A stretch of 64,000 nucleotides of DNA, taken from positions 384,927-448,926 of the forward strand of contig JAUJPC010000002.1 of the NCBI GenBank assembly GCA_030447305.1, read 5' to 3'. The position numbers and the translations under genes were made by a program. Source of the stretch: Actinomycetota bacterium. GTDB lineage: Bacteria > Actinomycetota > CADDZG01 > JAHWKV01. Shown here piece by piece: positions 29,953-59,001 of the stretch. Numbering within the stretch: position 1 is the stretch's first letter; each line of letters starts with the position of its first letter. The notes under the pieces are model-generated. The model saw only the letters and a program-made list of their open reading frames with translations, was not told the DNA's origin and ran no database searches.

Positions 29953-31104
29953 ATGACACCAAGCTCAGGGCAGGATTTACTCAAACAAGCCAAGGCTGCG
30001 GCGACGGCCCTGCCTCCGGACGAGGTTGCCCGCATCACCGAGGACGACAAGGTGACTCTCGTCGACGTTCGTGAGGGCGACGAGTGGCGCAGGGGCCACC
30101 TGCCCCACGCCGTCCACGTCCCCCGGGGTTACCTGGAGATGCAGGCGGAGTCCAAGGTGCCCGAAAAGGACGCTCCCATCATCGTTTACTGCGCCGGAGG
30201 CAACCGGTCCGCTCTGGCGACCGAGACCCTCAAACAGATGGGTTACACCGACGTGAGGCACATGAGCGGCGGGTTCACCGCCTGGCGAGACTCCGGCCTC
30301 GCGGTGGTAAAGCCCGTCGAGTGGACCGACAGGCAGATGGACCGCTACTCCCGGCATTTCGTGCTGCCCGAGGTGGGGGAGGCCGGACAGCAGAAAATCT
30401 TGCACGGGAAGGTGCTCGTCATAGGCGCCGGGGGGCTCGGCTCGCCGGCTCTGTACTACCTGGCAGCTGCCGGTGTGGGAACCCTTGGAATCGTCGACAT
30501 GGACGACGTCGAGGAAAACAATCTCCAGCGCCAGATCATTCATTCCACCGCCAAAGTCGGCATGAATAAGGCCGAGAGTGCAGGCAAGACCATCACCGAG
30601 CTCAATCCGGACGTGAAGATCGAGGTGCACAAGGAGAGGTTGACGCCCGACAACGTGGACGAGATCTTTGCCGGCTTCGACGTGGTGCTGGACGCCACCG
30701 ACAACTTCGGCACTCGGTACCTGATCAACGAAACCGCTCACAAGTACGGTATCCCGAGCATTTACGGGTCCATCTATCGATTCGAGGGCTACGCCAGCAC
30801 CTTCTGGCCGGCGAAGGGGGGACCGTGCTACCGGTGCATGCACCCGGAGCCGCCGCCGCCCGAGCTGGCCCCCACCTGAGGGGAAGCCGGCGTCCTGGGC
30901 GTGCTCCCGGGAGTGATTGGAGTCCTACAGGCCAACGAGGCGTTGAAGATCCTTGTGGGTTACGGCGAGCCGCTGGTTGGGCGCATCCTGACATTCGATG
31001 CCCAGACGACGGAGTTCGGCGAGCTGAAGCTGCGGAAGGACCCAAGCTGCTCTACCTGCTCGGTGCCGCCTCCGGCGCTCCAGCCGGTTGCGGTTGCTAG
31101 CTAG
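29953..31104 (+). CDS. rhodanese-MoeB/ThiF fusion sulfurtransferase with in-frame TGA at the active-site Cys position (selenocysteine candidate, or nonsense-interrupted)
   Basis: Track ORFs 29953..30879 and 30901..31104 share one frame, split by a single TGA at 30877-79; context CYRC...ELAPT-TGA-GEAGVLGVLPGVIG aligns with MoeB CYRC...ALTCVEAGVMAPLIGVIG; rhodanese Cys in VYCAGGNRS; ThiF Gly-rich loop and second CxxC. Confidence 0.6.
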
Positions 31105-33103: not shown

Positions 33104-33860
33104 CGAGTTGAAGGGTCTCGTACCGGTATTCGCCCTCGACGCGCTGACGCCCGCCGATGAGGAAGAGCTCGTCGCCCATCTGAAGGTCTGCCGGGAGTGC
33201 TCCCGGCTTCTGGACGACCATCGTGAGACGGCGGGAATGCTGGGCTTCGCGGCAAGCAGCCAGCGGGCTCCCGCAGACCTGAGGGACCGGATTATGAGCC
33301 AGGCCTCCAGGACCGCCCAGATGAGGGCCACAAGCGCGCCCGTGCAGCAACAAAGATCGAGTCCGCCACCCTGGCGGTGGCACTGGGCTGGGCTGGCGGC
33401 TGCCTGCATCCTTGCCCTGGTGGCCGGCGGGCTGGCCTTCCTGCGGATCGATAGTCAGACCGAGCCCCTGACGCAGCAGCAAATCGTCATCGCCAGGCAA
33501 CGGGAGGTGTTGGACCTCATTAGCTCGCCCGACTCCATTATGCTATCCATGGTGCCCACCCCCGCGTCTAGGGGGGCGGAAGGGAAGGCCTTCATATCGG
33601 ACACGGAGGGATCCGCCGCGGTGGTCGTCTCGGGGCTCGACCCTCCTGGCGACGATGTCTACACCCTGTGGCTCATTGCCGAATACGATCCCAAGCCGGT
33701 GACCGACTTCGTACCTGAGGACGGCCTGGCGCTGTTGCCCGTGGAGGCACCGGTCCGGCCCGACATGACACTGGCGGTAACCCGGGAACCCGATCCGGGA
33801 AGGTCCAGCCCCGCGGGTCCGGTCATCATGTCCGCGTACCGGCCTGAAGATCTGGCTTAG
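33093..33860 (+). CDS. anti-sigma factor (zinc-binding, single TM, RskA-like)
   Basis: Overlaps sigma gene by 11 nt; HLKVCRECSRLL motif, TM segment, periplasmic domain. Confidence 0.7.
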   Translation: MTHDELKGLVPVFALDALTPADEEELVAHLKVCRECSRLLDDHRETAGMLGFAASSQRAPADLRDRIMSQASRTAQMRATSAPVQQQRSSPPPWRWHWAGLAAACILALVAGGLAFLRIDSQTEPLTQQQIVIARQREVLDLISSPDSIMLSMVPTPASRGAEGKAFISDTEGSAAVVVSGLDPPGDDVYTLWLIAEYDPKPVTDFVPEDGLALLPVEAPVRPDMTLAVTREPDPGRSSPAGPVIMSAYRPEDLA

Positions 33861-47991: not shown

Positions 47992-48068
<77 letters not shown>

Positions 48069-48091
48069 CTGAAATGGCCTGATCTAGGCGT

Positions 48092-48130
48092 AAAAGGCGG
48101 CTTTCCGGGTCGGAAGGTCGCCTTTTGTAT
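48092..48130. terminator. bidirectional hairpin terminator downstream of tRNA
   Basis: AAAAGGCG...CGCCTTTT 8 bp outer stem with nested inner stem, followed by TTTTGTATT. Confidence 0.6.
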
Positions 48131-48503
48131 TCGGCGAAACTGCCGCATGTAGGCCATCCCATTCGATCGCGTGTTCGAGCGACTAAAATCATGCTGCCCT
48201 TAATGGCGGTCGAGTGTTGAGTCCGCTTGTCTGCGTTGGCATCTCGGGCCCGATAGCGAGCCCCTCCAAGCTTGACTGGGGTGTCTTCATCGACAAGATC
48301 CGGTGATGTTCTCGTGGAGCGAGCGGAAGCCTACCCTGGCTCAAGGTCACCTACGAGGTAGCTTTGTGGCGCAGGCATCAGCGAGCTTCCACACCACCAG
48401 GGGGTTGCGGGCTGTAAGTGGTCCGGAACCTTGGCAAGCTGGGGCCGTTCGTCGAGGGTGCCACCAGCATCGTCGACGAAGATTGATATTTATGGGATTG
48501 GCC

Positions 48504-48527
48504 TTTGACACAGCTATTTATGTCAAA
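48504..48527. promoter_or_regulatory. inverted repeat TTTGACA-N10-TGTCAAA in an AT-rich patch overlapping the JAB-E1 stop codon
   Basis: Perfect 7 bp arms; possible protein-binding or recombination site. Confidence 0.3.
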
Positions 48528-49893
48528 AGAAGAAATCCCCCTGGCCCCATTCAGCGCAAGCGGGACAGTCCGGTCGCCGAGGCGGCAGATCACATCGTTC
48601 CAGGACCCCCCGGCGTCCATCGTATTGCCACCATGCCGGCCCACGACCACCTCTAGCGAAACCAGTAATGAGATCGAGGGCACAGTTCACTGCTTCTGAA
48701 GCCAGCACCCCATTCATAGATGCGACCTGGGGCTCTCCTACGGCGTCCGGATTCAGGTCGTATCCCGGCGGACACTCTACCGCTTCCCTAGCGAGCACGG
48801 CGTCGGAGAGAAGCGGGCCACATTGAAGACAAGATGATTCGGGGAGAACCATAACCACTTGGCCGGACGCCGTGAGGAGCCTTCCATCTCTCCCAGTCCT
48901 AATGTTCATTCCGACGTCGATCAGCGGCAGATGATATCGGCGGCAGAAAACATTGATCTGCTGCCGTGCACCGAAAGTGTCTACTCAGGCAATGACTACA
49001 TCCATCCTCTTCAGAGCTTCACGGACGCTCGAGGATGGAAACCGCTCTCGTATTTCTATGATCGAAATGTCCGGGTTGATTGATGTTGCTAGACCAGCCA
49101 TCACCTCAGTTTTGAAGCTGCCCACGTTGGCTCTGGTCGCCCCAACCATTCTTCCCAACTGGACGTCCTCCACTCGCTGGTCGTCAACACCGATCAGCGT
49201 CCCGACGCCTTGATGGGCAAGCTGCTGGAATACATGGGAACCCCCTCCCGAAAGCCCGACCACCCCGATGGTGGCGTCGGCGAGTTGGGCGTCGCTCGGA
49301 GATCCTAGGGCTCTGGTCTGACGATCCAGCTGAAAGCGGGATGGTCGTTTTGAAGACGGCCTGGGCTGCCACCTTGGCGTGCCGACCACTTTCAGACCAG
49401 CAAGATCTCCTATCGATTGCCCGTCTTTCCAAAACCTCCCGGCCGCGGTGCCTTGGCCGAGCACGACCGATCCATTCAGGCGGCCGGAAAGAATCCGGCT
49501 AATCGGGGGAAAGAGTTTGCCCGCATTAGCGAAGTCGGGGGCGGACAGACGCGGTCGCTGGGTATCTCCGTGAGAATGGACAAGGACCAGACCGAAACCA
49601 CCTTGCATGGCAGCTTCGATCGCCCGAGAATTGAATGTCGCAGGCCAAGCTAACTGATGATCTTTCCGGCTTCGATCGGCTTGGTCGGGCGGCACGGGCA
49701 TCCATCTGCCGGCAATGAGGATGAAGTCCTCCGCTGATCTAGCAACTCGGCAAAGAAGAAAACCGCTCTGTTCGCCGATCGAAAAGTCCTCAACGTGGCT
49801 CCGAACGACCTTAAAAAGGGCAGCATTTATCCTGAGCTCGATTTTTGCAATGGCTGGGTCGTGAGCACGGAGTGAGGTTGAGAACTCGATCAA
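48523..49893 (-). CDS. JAB/MPN (JAMM) metalloprotease fused to E1-like (ThiF/MoeB) adenylyltransferase; single in-frame TGA (Sec candidate or nonsense)
   Basis: Track ORFs 48985..49893 and 48523..48909 share one frame, split by TGA at 48985-87; JAMM motif VLVHSHGDTQRPRLSAPD with upstream Glu; E1 Gly-rich loop GVVGLSGGGSHV, Arg-finger region, CLQC and CPAC; TTG start overlaps upstream stop (TTGA). Confidence 0.55.
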
Positions 49894-50258
49894 ATGTCCT
49901 CCCTAAACCGATTGAGCCACAACTGGACCGCCCTGGTCGGGGTCAAAGGCTCCTGAGGCCAGGCAAAGGCAAAGCTAAACTGCCGCCACGATTCCCCCAG
50001 AATCAGCTGGTCGCTGGAGCTGCGGGGCGGTTGCCCACTCGGCGTGAGGGCTGCCACATCGATCCAGAAATCTGGACGGGCATGAGGCCAGTTCACGAAA
50101 CGGACCATCGCTCTAACCGGAGAACCCCAGGGGGGAAGGAGGTGGACCTTTGGGAGAAGAACATGAAGCGGCTGGTCAGGACCAGGAGTCACGTCTAGAG
50201 CCTCCGAAAAGGAATTAGAGAGGTCTTCGACTATGGCCCTGCGCTCGACATCTTCCAT
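49890..50258 (-). CDS. hypothetical protein between Ubl and JAB-E1 genes (possible E2-like or adaptor; no Cys)
   Basis: 122 aa ORF; ATG overlaps Ubl stop (TGATG), stop overlaps JAB-E1 start; no cysteine present. Confidence 0.5.
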   Translation of the reverse strand: MEDVERRAIVEDLSNSFSEALDVTPGPDQPLHVLLPKVHLLPPWGSPVRAMVRFVNWPHARPDFWIDVAALTPSGQPPRSSSDQLILGESWRQFSFAFAWPQEPLTPTRAVQLWLNRFREDI

Positions 50259-50527
50259 CAGCTTACGCCCCCGCCGCCGATGGCCTCGAAATGCATTCCA
50301 GACTTGACGTCAATCGCTTCGTGATCCGCTAGGACCATTCGCCCATTTCCGTGAACCAAATACAAGACATCGGTTGAGTCCACGCCCAACTCGGCCTTTA
50401 GCCGGTCTACGGTGGTCTCCCCCGCACTTACGGTTTTTTGCTCGTCCCCGAGCTTTACGTGCGCCAGCTTTGCCTTTTCGTCGGTCTTCGTTTCAACCAC
50501 CTCCCGAGTACATCGTTGATTGCACAA
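50258..50527 (-). CDS. ubiquitin-like beta-grasp protein (ThiS/MoaD-like) with C-terminal GGGG-VS
   Basis: Small beta-grasp-like sequence ending HFEAIGGGGVS; first gene of a coupled three-gene unit; exact start uncertain (TTG 50527 or GTG 50500). Confidence 0.5.
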   Translation of the reverse strand: MCNQRCTREVVETKTDEKAKLAHVKLGDEQKTVSAGETTVDRLKAELGVDSTDVLYLVHGNGRMVLADHEAIDVKSGMHFEAIGGGGVS

Positions 50528-50552
50528 CCACTTGTTTACGCTGAAGGGTTAC

Positions 50553-51047
50553 CTAGAGCCGATTAAGCAATCTGGCGTCCTTCAGGGCGATGAAGATGGC
50601 TTCGCGACTCACTTGATACCGGGTGGCCAAAGCCCCAGGGGTTCGGTACTTAGGAAGGTCCCGCCTGAGCCAAAGACTGGGAATCAGCAAGGCGCCGGCG
50701 AAGATGTTTGCTTGAGCCTCCGCCAACTGACTCTCGTTATGGGCGTGACCAAGGTGGTAATGGCCGAGCTCGTGAGCGAGACTGAAACGCTGCCGGACCT
50801 GGGCTTGGTTGGAGGCGAGCTCTATTTGCCTTTCGTTGGGTCGAAGCAGGGCGTCCACTCCCCTAGGCAAATCAGCCCTCACAACGATTAACCCGGCACT
50901 CTGCGCAAGCTCCTCGACCGGCACTGGTGGTTGGGTCACACCCGCCTTCTTGAGGACATTTGCAGCAACCCTTCGACAATGAGCCGCTCTAACGTCCTCT
51001 TTGGGCTCGAAAAACTCTACGGCTCCATCGTCTTCAAACTCCTCCAT
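50553..51047 (-). CDS. ImmA/IrrE family zinc metallopeptidase (CapP-like regulator candidate)
   Basis: HEXXH in SLAHELGHYHLGH with COG2856-like N-terminal region. Confidence 0.65.
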   Translation of the reverse strand: MEEFEDDGAVEFFEPKEDVRAAHCRRVAANVLKKAGVTQPPVPVEELAQSAGLIVVRADLPRGVDALLRPNERQIELASNQAQVRQRFSLAHELGHYHLGHAHNESQLAEAQANIFAGALLIPSLWLRRDLPKYRTPGALATRYQVSREAIFIALKDARLLNRL

Positions 51048-51204
51048 GCTTCAACCACCTCCTCGACGAAATCCTCGGCAATGGGGCGTGCGCGAGCCGG
51101 ATCTCGCTCTGATCCACCAAGGGCGGATGCCCGGTCCTCCGCCGACAGACCGCTCGTCCTTCCCAGGACCTGACTGCCTGTGCCGGGGAACGTGACAAAG
51201 CCTG

Positions 51205-51450
51205 TTACTGTTTGGACAAGCAATGTTGCCAAGAGCTAGGTCGAAGACCAACGGTTCTAAGGAGTCTTGCAAGGCCAGCCGCAGATAGGCTGCGCGGATC
51301 AGCCTTCCCGGCGAGAAGCTTTCGAGCCTCCGATTCGTGCCCTATAACCTCATAAACAAGCTCGTCCTCGTTCCACCCAGCTGATTTACCGGCTTTGAGA
51401 ATCATGTCTGCGAGAAGGCTTGAGCTTGCCGTGGCCGCAGCCTTGACCAC
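51205..51450 (-). CDS. XRE-like helix-turn-helix protein (CapH-like repressor candidate)
   Basis: ELVYEVIGHESEARKLLAGKADPRSLSAAGLARLLRTVGL resembles HTH_3 helices; 5' end overlaps transposase remnant, boundary uncertain. Confidence 0.35.
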   Translation of the reverse strand: MVKAAATASSSLLADMILKAGKSAGWNEDELVYEVIGHESEARKLLAGKADPRSLSAAGLARLLRTVGLRPSSWQHCLSKQ

Positions 51451-51873
51451 CCTTTGTCGAAGTTCCTCGGGAACCTCTACCGCAGAGGCAGAATCGGCCT
51501 CGTACTCCGGCTCCGTAATTCCTGACGTGTAAGCCTGAGACCTTGTGGACCCCGTTGGGCGAGATCTTGATCGATCCCCATTTGCGCCGGGCCAGCTCGT
51601 CGCTGATGCGTTGCGGACCCACGGTGGGAAACGCCAGGGCGAACGCGATCACCCGCTGCTCAATCATCGGTGAGGTGGCGTTGGGCATCCGGGGCCGCCG
51701 GCGCTCCCGGGGGCCAAGATCTCGATGCCGAAACGCTCGACCTGGCCCTTCCAGCGGTAGTAGGTCGAGGGATGGATCCCCATTGCCCGGCAGGCGGCTC
51801 TTACATTGCCCATCTCGTGAGCTAGTCCAAAGACTCGTACTCTGAACCGGAACAGGGCATCATCTTGAGTCAA
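51386..51873 (-). mobile_element. IS481-family transposase N-terminal remnant (frameshifted, no DDE core)
   Basis: Two overlapping ORFs with HTH region (AACRAMGIHPSTYYRWK) and GPQRISDELARR segment; no integrase core follows. Confidence 0.55.
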
Positions 51874-52877: not shown

Positions 52878-53321
52878 TTGGCATGGTGGAGGGGCAAAGG
52901 GCCATCGCCGCGACATCAACCTGGGTACTCGCGCGGAGTGACGAGCGACCAGCGCTACACGGGGCGGGCAGAGCACGAAGCTCTCGCCGCCAAGCAGGCG
53001 CAACTCGGGCGGTCGGAAGCGACCTGCGCCGCCCTCATCCCCATCACTAAGTCGGAGGCTTGGTGGGGGCTCACCCAGGACGAGCGGCGGGAAATCTTCG
53101 AGGAGCGCTCGCACCATATAGCCATCGGTTTGGAGTACCTGCCCGCAGTCGCTCGCCGTCTTCATCACGGCCGCGACCTTGGCGAAGCATTCGACTTCCT
53201 TACCTGGTTCGAGTACCCGGAGGAGAGCCGTGCTGCGTTCGAGGAGCTCGTCGCGCGTCTTCGATTGACGCCTGAGTGGGAGTTCGTGGAGCGGGAGATC
53301 GACATCCGTCTCACTCGGTAG
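52878..53321 (+). CDS. chlorite dismutase/HemQ family-like protein, possibly truncated
   Basis: C-terminal-domain-like pattern (IPITKSEAWWGLTQDERREIFEE...DFLTWFEYPEE); N-terminal half not found in frame. Confidence 0.4.
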   Translation: MAWWRGKGPSPRHQPGYSRGVTSDQRYTGRAEHEALAAKQAQLGRSEATCAALIPITKSEAWWGLTQDERREIFEERSHHIAIGLEYLPAVARRLHHGRDLGEAFDFLTWFEYPEESRAAFEELVARLRLTPEWEFVEREIDIRLTR

Positions 53322-53649: not shown

Positions 53650-54396
53650 GTGAGGCAGCTCAAAACCGCACTCGGGAACGGAGCAGGAGCGGTCAACTCC
53701 GACGAGAACGTAGGCGGGGTTCTCAAACTGCTTGGCGGGGATCTACGTAATTCGGGACTGGCCTCAGCTTCCGACATTCCGCAGTTCGGGGTGGGCGCAG
53801 TCTCGGCACGGGAACTGGTGCAAGCCCTGAGGCTCGCTATACCTGGAGCCGAAGTCCAGATTCCAGTCATACGTCAAGGCAGTGGCGTACAGCGTCTCCT
53901 CCTGGTGTCGATCCTGCTTCGGCTTGCTCAATCCGGCGAGAACCCCTTGATTGGGCGCTTTGAAGAGCCGGAGGAAGCTCTAGAGCCTCTCAGGCAAACC
54001 CAGATGGCCAAGACGTTGGCCCAAATTGTGGGGCGTGGCGGACAAGTATTTGTCGTGACGCATTCCCCAGAGGTGGCTCGCGCCTTCTCAATCGATGACT
54101 TCCTCTTGCTTGAGGGGCGCTCGGCCGGGGGAGGTGCATCGGCTTCCCTGCCTGCCGGGCTTCGAGCCTGTAGCGAGGAACCACCAAGAGGGGTTTGCTC
54201 TGCCGGAGGAACTTGGCTACGTCCACCGCTGGCGGGAAATTGCCTTTCTCTTGGGGGACTAGCTCATCAGGTCATAGGTCTCCGAAGTAACCCGACGCAA
54301 CCAATGCTTCCGGCGAGTGGAGGTTCGGTGTGGCTGACCAGGACAATTTCGACAGCGCTGTGGAGCGGTTCCGCGAGGCTCTTCATGAGTACGTGA
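53650..54396 (+). pseudogene. C-terminal fragment of an ABC/AAA-type ATPase (OLD/RecF-like), N-terminal Walker A region missing
   Basis: Walker B/D-loop-like FEEPEEALEP and H-loop VFVVTHSPE; no upstream P-loop in any frame. Confidence 0.5.
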
Positions 54397-58186: not shown

Positions 58187-59001
58187 TCAGCCCACCGAGG
58201 ATGTCGCGGCGTTCCAGTCGAAGCGCACCGCGGCGCTCCGGCGGGTCGCCTCGTGACTTGGGTATCTTGAGATCGAGTCCCCGAGAGGCCGTTCCCGACC
58301 GTAGTGATCAACGTAGCCCCGCAACACCCGTTCAAGGTGGCGCCGGCTGCGGATCAGAATCTCGTCCAAGCATTCGCTTCGAACGGTTAGGACCCAACGC
58401 TCCGCGAAAGCGTTCGCTCGAGGTGCCCGGTACGGCGTGCGGATGATCTGGATACCCTCGGACACGCATAGCTCGTCAAAGGGACCGGTGAACTTGCAAT
58501 CCCGGTCGTGGATCAGAGATCGTGGGGAAACGAATCGTCGTCCCGAGCGATGAACAGATTCCTTGCCTGCTGGGTCACCCATGTCGGGGGTGGGCAGTTA
58601 TCCCGGCCATATGGACCTTGCCGGGTGGAAAGCTCGATGAAGAACAAGACGTACAAGGTCTTGAGCCAGACCGTCTCAACGGTGAAGAAGTCGGTGGCGA
58701 TAATCCCGTGCGCCTGAGCGCGCAAGAACTCCGACCAGCTCGGCCCATCCCGACGGGGAGCCGGCTGCAGTCCGTGATCCTTCAAAACCCGCCGGACCGT
58801 GGAGGTCCCCACCCGGATACCCAGCTTGTGAAGTTCACCCTGGATTCGCATGTAGCCCCAGCGTGGTGAAAGAACTAGGGGCGGTGAATGAATCTCGGAT
58901 GAACGGTTGGTCTTCAGACACCACTGCCGCGGACGTAGCCCTGGTTGCTGCCAGAAAGCCTGCCAGAGTCGGCGGGGGAGCAGCTGAGCGCAGGTCACCA
59001 A
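58187..59001 (-). mobile_element. DDE transposase (rve integrase core) remnant, frameshifted into two ORFs
   Basis: ORFs 58513..59001 and 58187..58582 together give WGYMRIQGELHKLG...DFFTVET...IHDRDCKFTG...AFAERWV...YVDHYGRERP; no intact N-terminal HTH found. Confidence 0.6.

Follow-up and report, generated by a model that had tools for sequence, protein, structure and literature searches.

A cysteine-aligned TGA in a bubCD-like gene of an Actinomycetota island is very likely a recent nonsense mutation rather than a selenocysteine codon

The minus strand of the stretch of Actinomycetota DNA analyzed here (64,000 nucleotides, hereafter the window) carries a gene for a putative JAB/JAMM peptidase fused to a ThiF-type E1 adenylation domain (JAB-E1), which is interrupted by an in-frame TGA at codon 303. 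Our analysis indicates that this TGA is very likely a recent nonsense mutation, from TGT (Cys) to stop, in a bubCD-like gene of a decaying island of the Bub (bacterial ubiquitination-like) type. The original prediction, made from the letters of the window alone, had held selenocysteine (Sec) recoding and nonsense decay to be equally plausible; decay is now favored and Sec recoding is not, given a sibling allele with TGT, the lack of TGA among the homologous loci compared, the failure of the downstream hairpin as a selenocysteine insertion sequence (SECIS) element, and two more lesions in the same allele.

The minus-strand frame from 49893 to 48523 comprises 456 codons with one internal stop (...KRMDVVIA*VDTFGARQQINVFCRRYHLPLID..., the asterisk marking the stop), and the open reading frame (ORF) list contains a 302-aa ORF of this gene ending at 48985-48987, so the frame is indeed broken once by TGA, as had been claimed. 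The natural stop codon of the gene is also TGA (48523-48525). The Pfam ThiF family matched residues 190-445, spanning the stop, with an E-value of 9e-34, and the Pfam match of Prok-JAB at the N-terminus was sub-threshold. Using tblastn with E. coli MoeB, DLVLDCTDNVAVRNQLNAGC aligned gaplessly to DVVIA*VDTFGARQQINVFC, placing the TGA opposite the cysteine of the DCTDN motif and upholding both the alignment first proposed and the Ala noted in place of the neighbouring Asp, as JAB-E1 reads DVVIA ahead of the TGA.

The exact 302-aa product (P0001) was recorded from both NCBI and Logan, and falls in one 90% cluster with an intact product of 458 aa (P0122), which reads ...MDVVIACVDTF... across the same site. 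The contig of P0122, located via the neighbouring E2 gene, is L002, from the Logan assembly of the sibling run SRR24765286, and over ~3.5 kb it differs from the window at five places only (Table 1). Three of these, namely the TGA, a 6-bp deletion in the JAB-E1 linker and the loss of 1 bp, which shifts the frame of a conserved upstream gene, are derived in the window allele on sequence comparison, since family members as a rule have Cys in place of the TGA, retain both linker residues, and share the upstream reading frame of L002 (homologous operons use this frame, which is split into two in the window). Codon 303 was derived from TGT by a T>A change at its third position. The window allele, therefore, has three private disruptive lesions against two ordinary substitutions, and both marks of a pseudogene are present, that is, a near-identical intact allele relative to which the lesion is derived and further disabling lesions in the gene and its operon. 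The 5′ end of the island has been lost to a transposase insertion in both alleles.

Because the TGA differs by one base from the corresponding codon of a sibling allele that is otherwise nearly the same, and because the base was seen at the assembly level, a sequencing or assembly error (the true base being T and the gene intact in the window strain) might be considered. We regard this as highly improbable: the same base and both indels occur in the NCBI assembly and in the Logan assembly made independently from run SRR24765285 (L001, which matches the window exactly over 48037-51567), and the site lies outside any homopolymer (CCTGAGTA). Moreover, the two runs represent distinct strains, because they differ by 10 single-nucleotide polymorphisms in the ~1 kb of intergenic DNA flanking MoeB.

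Across the family, the column of the TGA is occupied by Cys in ~95% of ~260 homologues (113/119 proteins, 52 of the 59 GTDB loci covering the column once the window's own L001 and L002 are excluded, and 77/78 metagenome loci); Citrobacter BubCD has Cys there too (FCCVDTY). The site is not chemically demanding, as Ala, Gly and Ser are also found there. TGA occupies this column in none of 139 homologous DNA loci (61 GTDB and 78 metagenome), among the 120 best protein clusters only the product of the window itself is shortened, and an exact-pattern scan of JGI metagenomes for more alleles of the TGA site found none. The original prediction had called for this comparison of island homologues, taking a sense codon together with a lack of Sec machinery as the signature of a pseudogene; the sense codon is what homologues have, and the comparison covers that half of the signature. 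Frameshifts in several homologous loci of long-read metagenome-assembled genomes were not counted as pseudogenisation, given that they may be sequencing errors. The hosts of the homologues (Solirubrobacterales, Acidimicrobiales, Gemmatimonadota, Acidobacteriota, and Proteobacteria) are as expected of a mobile defence module.

That a nonsense codon should fall on a cysteine is unremarkable, because Cys codons are one step from TGA: 11 of the 53 one-step mutations to TGA in the JAB-E1 gene (21%) start from Cys codons.

Separately, two JGI metagenome contigs of the family, L087 (Ga0185299_10000888) and L088 (Ga0073928_10000632), carry an in-frame TGA at a non-Cys column, query position 204 (...GPNAE*QLAAA...). 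As it is identical in two metagenome assemblies, this TGA is an independent nonsense allele, and it shows that knock-outs by in-frame TGA recur in the JAB-E1 family.

The window also contains a rhodanese-MoeB gene with an in-frame TGA, and the occurrence of two ThiF-family genes with TGA at Cys positions had originally been called a notable coincidence. Both TGAs are present as described, and the coincidence is explained by a genuine Sec codon in MoeB and, 18 kb away, an unrelated nonsense codon in JAB-E1. MoeB is a known selenoprotein family (Sargasso Sea; Zhang, Fomenko & Gladyshev 2005, PMC1088965), and its TGA here lies at the column of the crossover-loop Cys (E. coli MoeB Cys187). The TGA is present in 9/9 orthologue DNAs, all of which continue into an invariant UCCUGGG-CGUGCU-CCCRGGA hairpin, where synonymous sites are invariant inside and variable outside and the single substitution keeps the pairing. 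With 7 bp, a CGUGCU loop and a spacing of 20 nt, this hairpin conforms to the SECIS model. Among the top 120 homologue clusters, 60 (67-99% identity) end exactly at ...LAPT and the other 60 are full-length with Cys at that position, and the MoeB coding sequence, including the part past the TGA, shows zero differences between the two sibling strains. On this comparative evidence the MoeB TGA is a genuine Sec site, here in an Actinomycetota-like lineage.

The host lineage, thus, very probably decodes UGA as Sec, and against this background it is informative that the JAB-E1 site fails these tests. None of selA, selB, selC, or selD was found within the 64-kb window, of which ~45 ORFs were searched with Pfam; the conserved MoeB Sec codon implies that the Sec machinery would exist in the genome. 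Both genes encode ThiF-fold enzymes, and in both the in-frame TGA falls where homologues have Cys and precedes a hairpin. However, the crossover-loop position of the Cys, the conservation of the TGA, its retention in both strains, and the invariant hairpin that fits the SECIS model are seen in MoeB only, and none of these features accompanies the JAB-E1 TGA.

The imperfect hairpin reported ~19 nt downstream of the JAB-E1 TGA does exist, with a stem (CGGCAGCAGA / UCUGCCGCCG) at 48938-48966 that begins 18 nt after the UGA. Its folding energy is -14.5 kcal/mol, the isolated 34-mer having z = -4, and in a window of 62.7% GC, 15% of random positions precede, at a SECIS-compatible distance, a 34-nt segment that folds at least as well, while 82% pass the SECIS-model threshold of -7.5 kcal/mol. 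The same hairpin is present, unchanged, in the Cys allele L002 and partly in Cys homologues, where it recurs because the codons for R-Q-Q (CGG-CAG-CAG) can pair with those for F-C-R-R (TTC-TGC-CGC-CG). The bacterial SECIS model requires a G in one of the first two loop positions (PMC13188914). The sole stable hairpin has a 9-nt loop, UCAAUGUUU, without G in positions 1-2, and alternative hairpins with a loop G are unstable (-0.5 kcal/mol or weaker); however, some SECIS elements do not fit the bacterial model, so the loop-G failure is not absolute (PMC13188914). A covariance model (R1) built from the nine MoeB orthologue SECIS elements, which is narrow and largely sequence-specific, gave no hit at E<=10 near 48925-48987 and 76 bits at MoeB. 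Rfam, run on the whole window at gathering thresholds and on both TGA regions at E<=10, matched no SECIS family, and as the genuine MoeB element went unmatched too, this result is non-discriminating.

Elsewhere in the window, a short hairpin (CCGGG-AGUGCU-CCCGG) at 33191-33206 on the plus strand resembles the apex of the MoeB SECIS and scored 13 bits with model R1. It is probably due to chance, being located inside an uninterrupted anti-sigma-K (RskA) ORF with no TGA upstream.

With these results in hand, Sec recoding, in which SelB would read the UGA with the aid of the downstream hairpin and yield a full-length, Sec-containing BubCD-like enzyme, is very unlikely. It draws on the TGA being at a Cys column, on a stable hairpin whose loop lies 28 nt from the UGA, which is within the permitted range, on the genuine Sec gene MoeB in the same window, and on a frame that stays intact past the stop. 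However, the near-identical sibling has TGT with the same hairpin, no homologue has TGA in 139 loci and 119 proteins, the hairpin loop is without the G required (PMC13188914), and the clade-specific SECIS model is unmatched. The residue itself is replaceable by Ala, Gly, and Ser, the catalytic residue being instead Tyr378 (PMC11601596), and the same allele bears two more disruptive lesions. A related scenario, the birth of a selenoprotein in a host that already reads UGA as Sec in MoeB, would have the one-step TGT>TGA change arise 28 nt upstream of the loop of a pre-existing, coding-constrained hairpin, with low-efficiency Sec insertion by SelB yielding some full-length, Sec-containing E1; we give this equally little credence.

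UGA is the leakiest stop codon in bacteria. A functional leaky or programmed stop can, therefore, be envisaged, in which near-cognate read-through (as Trp or Cys) holds a toxic defence E1 at a very low level, or in which the JAB fragment by itself has acquired a role. The complete JAMM active site in the 302-aa product and the intact frame past the stop would suit this, but no relative shares the stop, the sibling allele lacks it, the Rossmann fold is broken two residues ahead of an invariant Asp, and the accompanying frameshift and deletion suggest general decay. A functional stop is, on balance, scarcely probable.

Two further ideas were rejected. An alternative genetic code (TGA as Trp or Gly) does not apply, since TGA ends the JAB-E1 gene and the gene for the ubiquitin-like protein (Ubl) where their homologues end. 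Reconstitution of the enzyme from two polypeptides, the 302-aa product and a 128-aa ORF from an ATG at 48909, is unlikely, as the break lies inside the Rossmann fold, the two chains together would be missing residues 304-328, and there is no evident ribosome-binding site.

Several points nonetheless weigh against a recent nonsense mutation. The two assemblies that support the TGA probably derive from the same reads, and the sibling comparison involves one allele only. The gene shows no further damage past the stop, the event being too recent for visible decay there. The hairpin agrees with the SECIS model in three of four respects, namely spacing (28 nt from UGA to loop), stem length and loop size, and stability. 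Finally, in a host lineage that very probably decodes UGA as Sec, some Sec insertion may occur at the new UGA.

If codon 303 is a nonsense codon, the consequences for the protein can be read from what lies on either side of it (Table 1). The stop interrupts the Rossmann fold two residues ahead of the invariant Asp, and the residues encoded past it include the invariant D305, R310, N314, C355/C358, Y378 (the Bub-type catalytic Tyr), and C443/C446. Tyr378 is invariant in the E1 crossover loop (119/119), which has no conserved Cys.

Codon 374 of the same gene (48772-48774, minus strand) specifies a Cys in this crossover loop (VECPPGY), four residues ahead of the invariant catalytic Tyr, at a position that is Arg in 105/119 homologues; the sibling allele shares Cys374.

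We envisage that a small Bub-type island was acquired horizontally next to tRNA-Met. In its intact relatives, judging by homology to Citrobacter BubCD and BubB, the JAB domain would trim the Ubl, exposing Gly-Gly, and the E1 domain would adenylate the Ubl and hand it via the invariant Tyr to a Cys-less, Ser-dependent E2. In the window strain, translation would end at codon 303, giving a 302-aa product that would keep the peptidase domain and be devoid of the Mg/ATP-binding Asp, the catalytic Tyr, and the zinc-binding cysteines. Because these lie past the stop, Ubl adenylation and transfer have probably been lost in the window strain. As for the direction and cause of decay, we infer that the operon as a whole is either decaying or selected for inactivation. 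Selection may have been relaxed once the island lost its regulatory 5′ end, or selection may have silenced a deregulated, potentially toxic module, and both scenarios fit a lesion pattern of three disruptive versus two ordinary changes.

The TGA at codon 303 carries a caution for selenoprotein annotation. In a genome that uses Sec, a Cys-aligned TGA followed by a GC-rich hairpin is insufficient for a selenoprotein call, because a fifth of the one-step routes to TGA in this gene start from Cys codons and, at 63% GC, hairpins are frequent. The window offers matched positive (MoeB) and negative (bubCD-like) controls for pipelines based on Cys/Sec pairs, and allele comparison between sibling samples separated the two cases cleanly. 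It also provides a case in which a Bub-type ubiquitin-like defence module was inactivated at the level of the strain, in line with the speed at which defence islands are known to be gained and lost.

Table 1. Features of the window discussed in the text (window coordinates)
Feature	Position	Strand	Details
In-frame TGA, codon 303 of the JAB-E1 gene	48985..48987	-	Stop in translation; T in sibling allele L002 where window has A; column Cys in homologues
Disrupted bubCD-like gene, JAB/JAMM peptidase and ThiF-type E1 adenylation domain fused	48523..49893	-	Pfam ThiF/Prok-JAB; BubCD profile match; invariant JAMM and E1 residues
Encoded 302-aa product	48988..49893	-	Intact JAMM domain (E41, H106, H108, S117, D120) and first, nucleotide-binding half of E1 Rossmann fold (GxGGG, R248, K261)
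Untranslated 3′ remainder of the JAB-E1 gene	48523..48984	-	In frame, undamaged; identical to intact allele past stop
Hairpin downstream of the TGA, CGGC.GCAGA-UCAAUGUUU-UCUGC.GCCG	48938..48966	-	Codons of conserved motif A-R-Q-Q-I-N-x-F-C-R-R; not a SECIS
Difference, L002 versus window	48985		T for A (TGT, not TGA)
Difference, L002 versus window	49165		Synonymous C/T
Difference, L002 versus window	50819		Leu/Ile change, M78 gene
Difference, L002 versus window	51224/5		One additional A in L002
Private 6-bp deletion site (TTGCGA in sibling L002)	49375..49376	-	Two JAB-E1 linker residues lost, P-x-x-x-W to P-x-W; kept by family
Rhodanese-MoeB gene	29953-31098	+	TGA 30877-30879; hairpin 30893-30912
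tRNA-Met gene, island border	47992..48068	+
BubB-like E2, 122 aa	49890..50258	-	No conserved Cys, invariant Ser95; AlphaFold (AF2) model and PDB match
Small ubiquitin-like protein (putative), ~80 aa	50258..50500	-	Ends GGGGVS; stop overlaps E2 start (ATGA)
CapP-like M78 (IrrE-type) metallopeptidase, island regulator	50553..51047	-	Pfam Peptidase_M78 E=1e-18; PADLOC capP E=5e-22
Conserved upstream gene, broken	51029..51534	-	Private 1-bp deletion 51224/51225 shifts frame; first ~50 codons missing
Transposase (HTH_28 / HTH_Tnp_1) fragments	51386..51873	-	Replace island 5′ end, including sigma-factor-like gene of closest intact operons

The JAB-E1 gene is the last of a short minus-strand operon lying between tRNA-Met and transposase remnants, and the GC content of the island (56-59%; ~57% for the operon) is below that of its flanks (60-66%). 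No convincing direct repeat of the tRNA 3′ end was found as a far border of the island. The E2 gene precedes JAB-E1, and among homologues of its product Ser95 is invariant and 16/21 are without any Cys. A profile sequence search with this E2 against the PDB returned nothing, and BubB was recognised via fold comparison only, in which the AF2 model (pLDDT 92.6) had Citrobacter BubB (9eae_C) as its best PDB match (TM 0.71, root-mean-square deviation 2.9 A). The Ser-x-His motif of Citrobacter BubB is not evident in the 122-aa protein. Given its position and its C-terminus, of which the GGVS is conserved in homologous operons, the ~80-aa protein encoded next is probably the Ubl.

Further upstream, the conserved gene broken in the window encodes 200-231 aa in intact operons and has no Pfam match; judging by its position, the product may act as a partner of the M78 peptidase, either anti-sigma-like or CapH-like. 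The closest intact operons (L003 and L004) start with a sigma-factor-like gene, followed by this conserved 200-231 aa protein.

To the right of tRNA-Met, the segments 51386-51873, 52878-53321, 53650-54396, and 58187-59001 look like a decayed variable region. Fragments of transposase HTH and of IS3-type rve_3/HTH_21 occur there, together with a partial chlorite-dismutase-like ORF and an AAA_15 ATPase represented by its C-terminal end only.

The operon carries the hallmarks, in sequence and in the modelled E2 fold, of the Bub system (BubA/BubB/BubCD-like), also termed '6E' and described as oxyester-based (Ye et al., PMC11601596). A profile of 28 JAB-E1 family members matched Citrobacter BubCD (PDB 9ea4) at E=1.3e-38 across both domains. 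As in Type I Bub (6E.1; Citrobacter, PDB 9ea4 and 9eae), there is a JAB/JAMM-fused E1 of the homodimer type, a crossover loop with an invariant Tyr and no conserved Cys, an E2 partner of BubB fold without a conserved Cys and with an invariant Ser, a Ubl with a C-terminal Gly-Gly, and a CapP-like M78 regulator. Unlike Type I Bub, where they are fused as BubAB, the Ubl and E2 of the island are encoded by separate genes coupled in translation through an ATGA overlap, the Ubl has a 2-residue VS tail, the closest intact operons begin with the sigma-factor-like gene and the 200-231 aa protein instead of CapH, and the window copy is broken by the nonsense codon, the 6-bp deletion, the frameshift, and the transposase insertion. 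All Bub operons possess bubE, encoding a DUF6527 serine protease (PMC11601596). No DUF6527 match was found among the island ORFs scanned, only ~450 bp separating the E1 stop from the tRNA, and no conserved downstream gene was found next to the homologous loci, where ORFs were not scanned with the Pfam DUF6527 model.

The Bil (BilABCD) and CBASS Cap2/Cap3 systems are likewise bacterial Ubl/E1/E2/JAB defence modules on mobile islands. However, Bil and Cap2 use Cys thioesters; in Bil the JAB protein is separate and the E1 carries tandem adenylation domains, and Cap2 is an E2-E1 fusion (PMC11601596). The PADLOC E1-E2 (Cap2) models matched the Rossmann part of JAB-E1 only, and weakly (E=4e-12).

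The island (48523-51534, minus strand) and its relatives L003-L022 look like a Bub-like clade that differs from the published Types I and II in its unfused Ubl (GGVS), its Cys-less E2, and the lack of a DUF6527 BubE. In its closest intact operons, these genes are preceded by an ECF (extracytoplasmic function)-sigma-like gene, the 200-231 aa protein, and the M78 peptidase, and the clade is widespread in Solirubrobacterales and other soil lineages.

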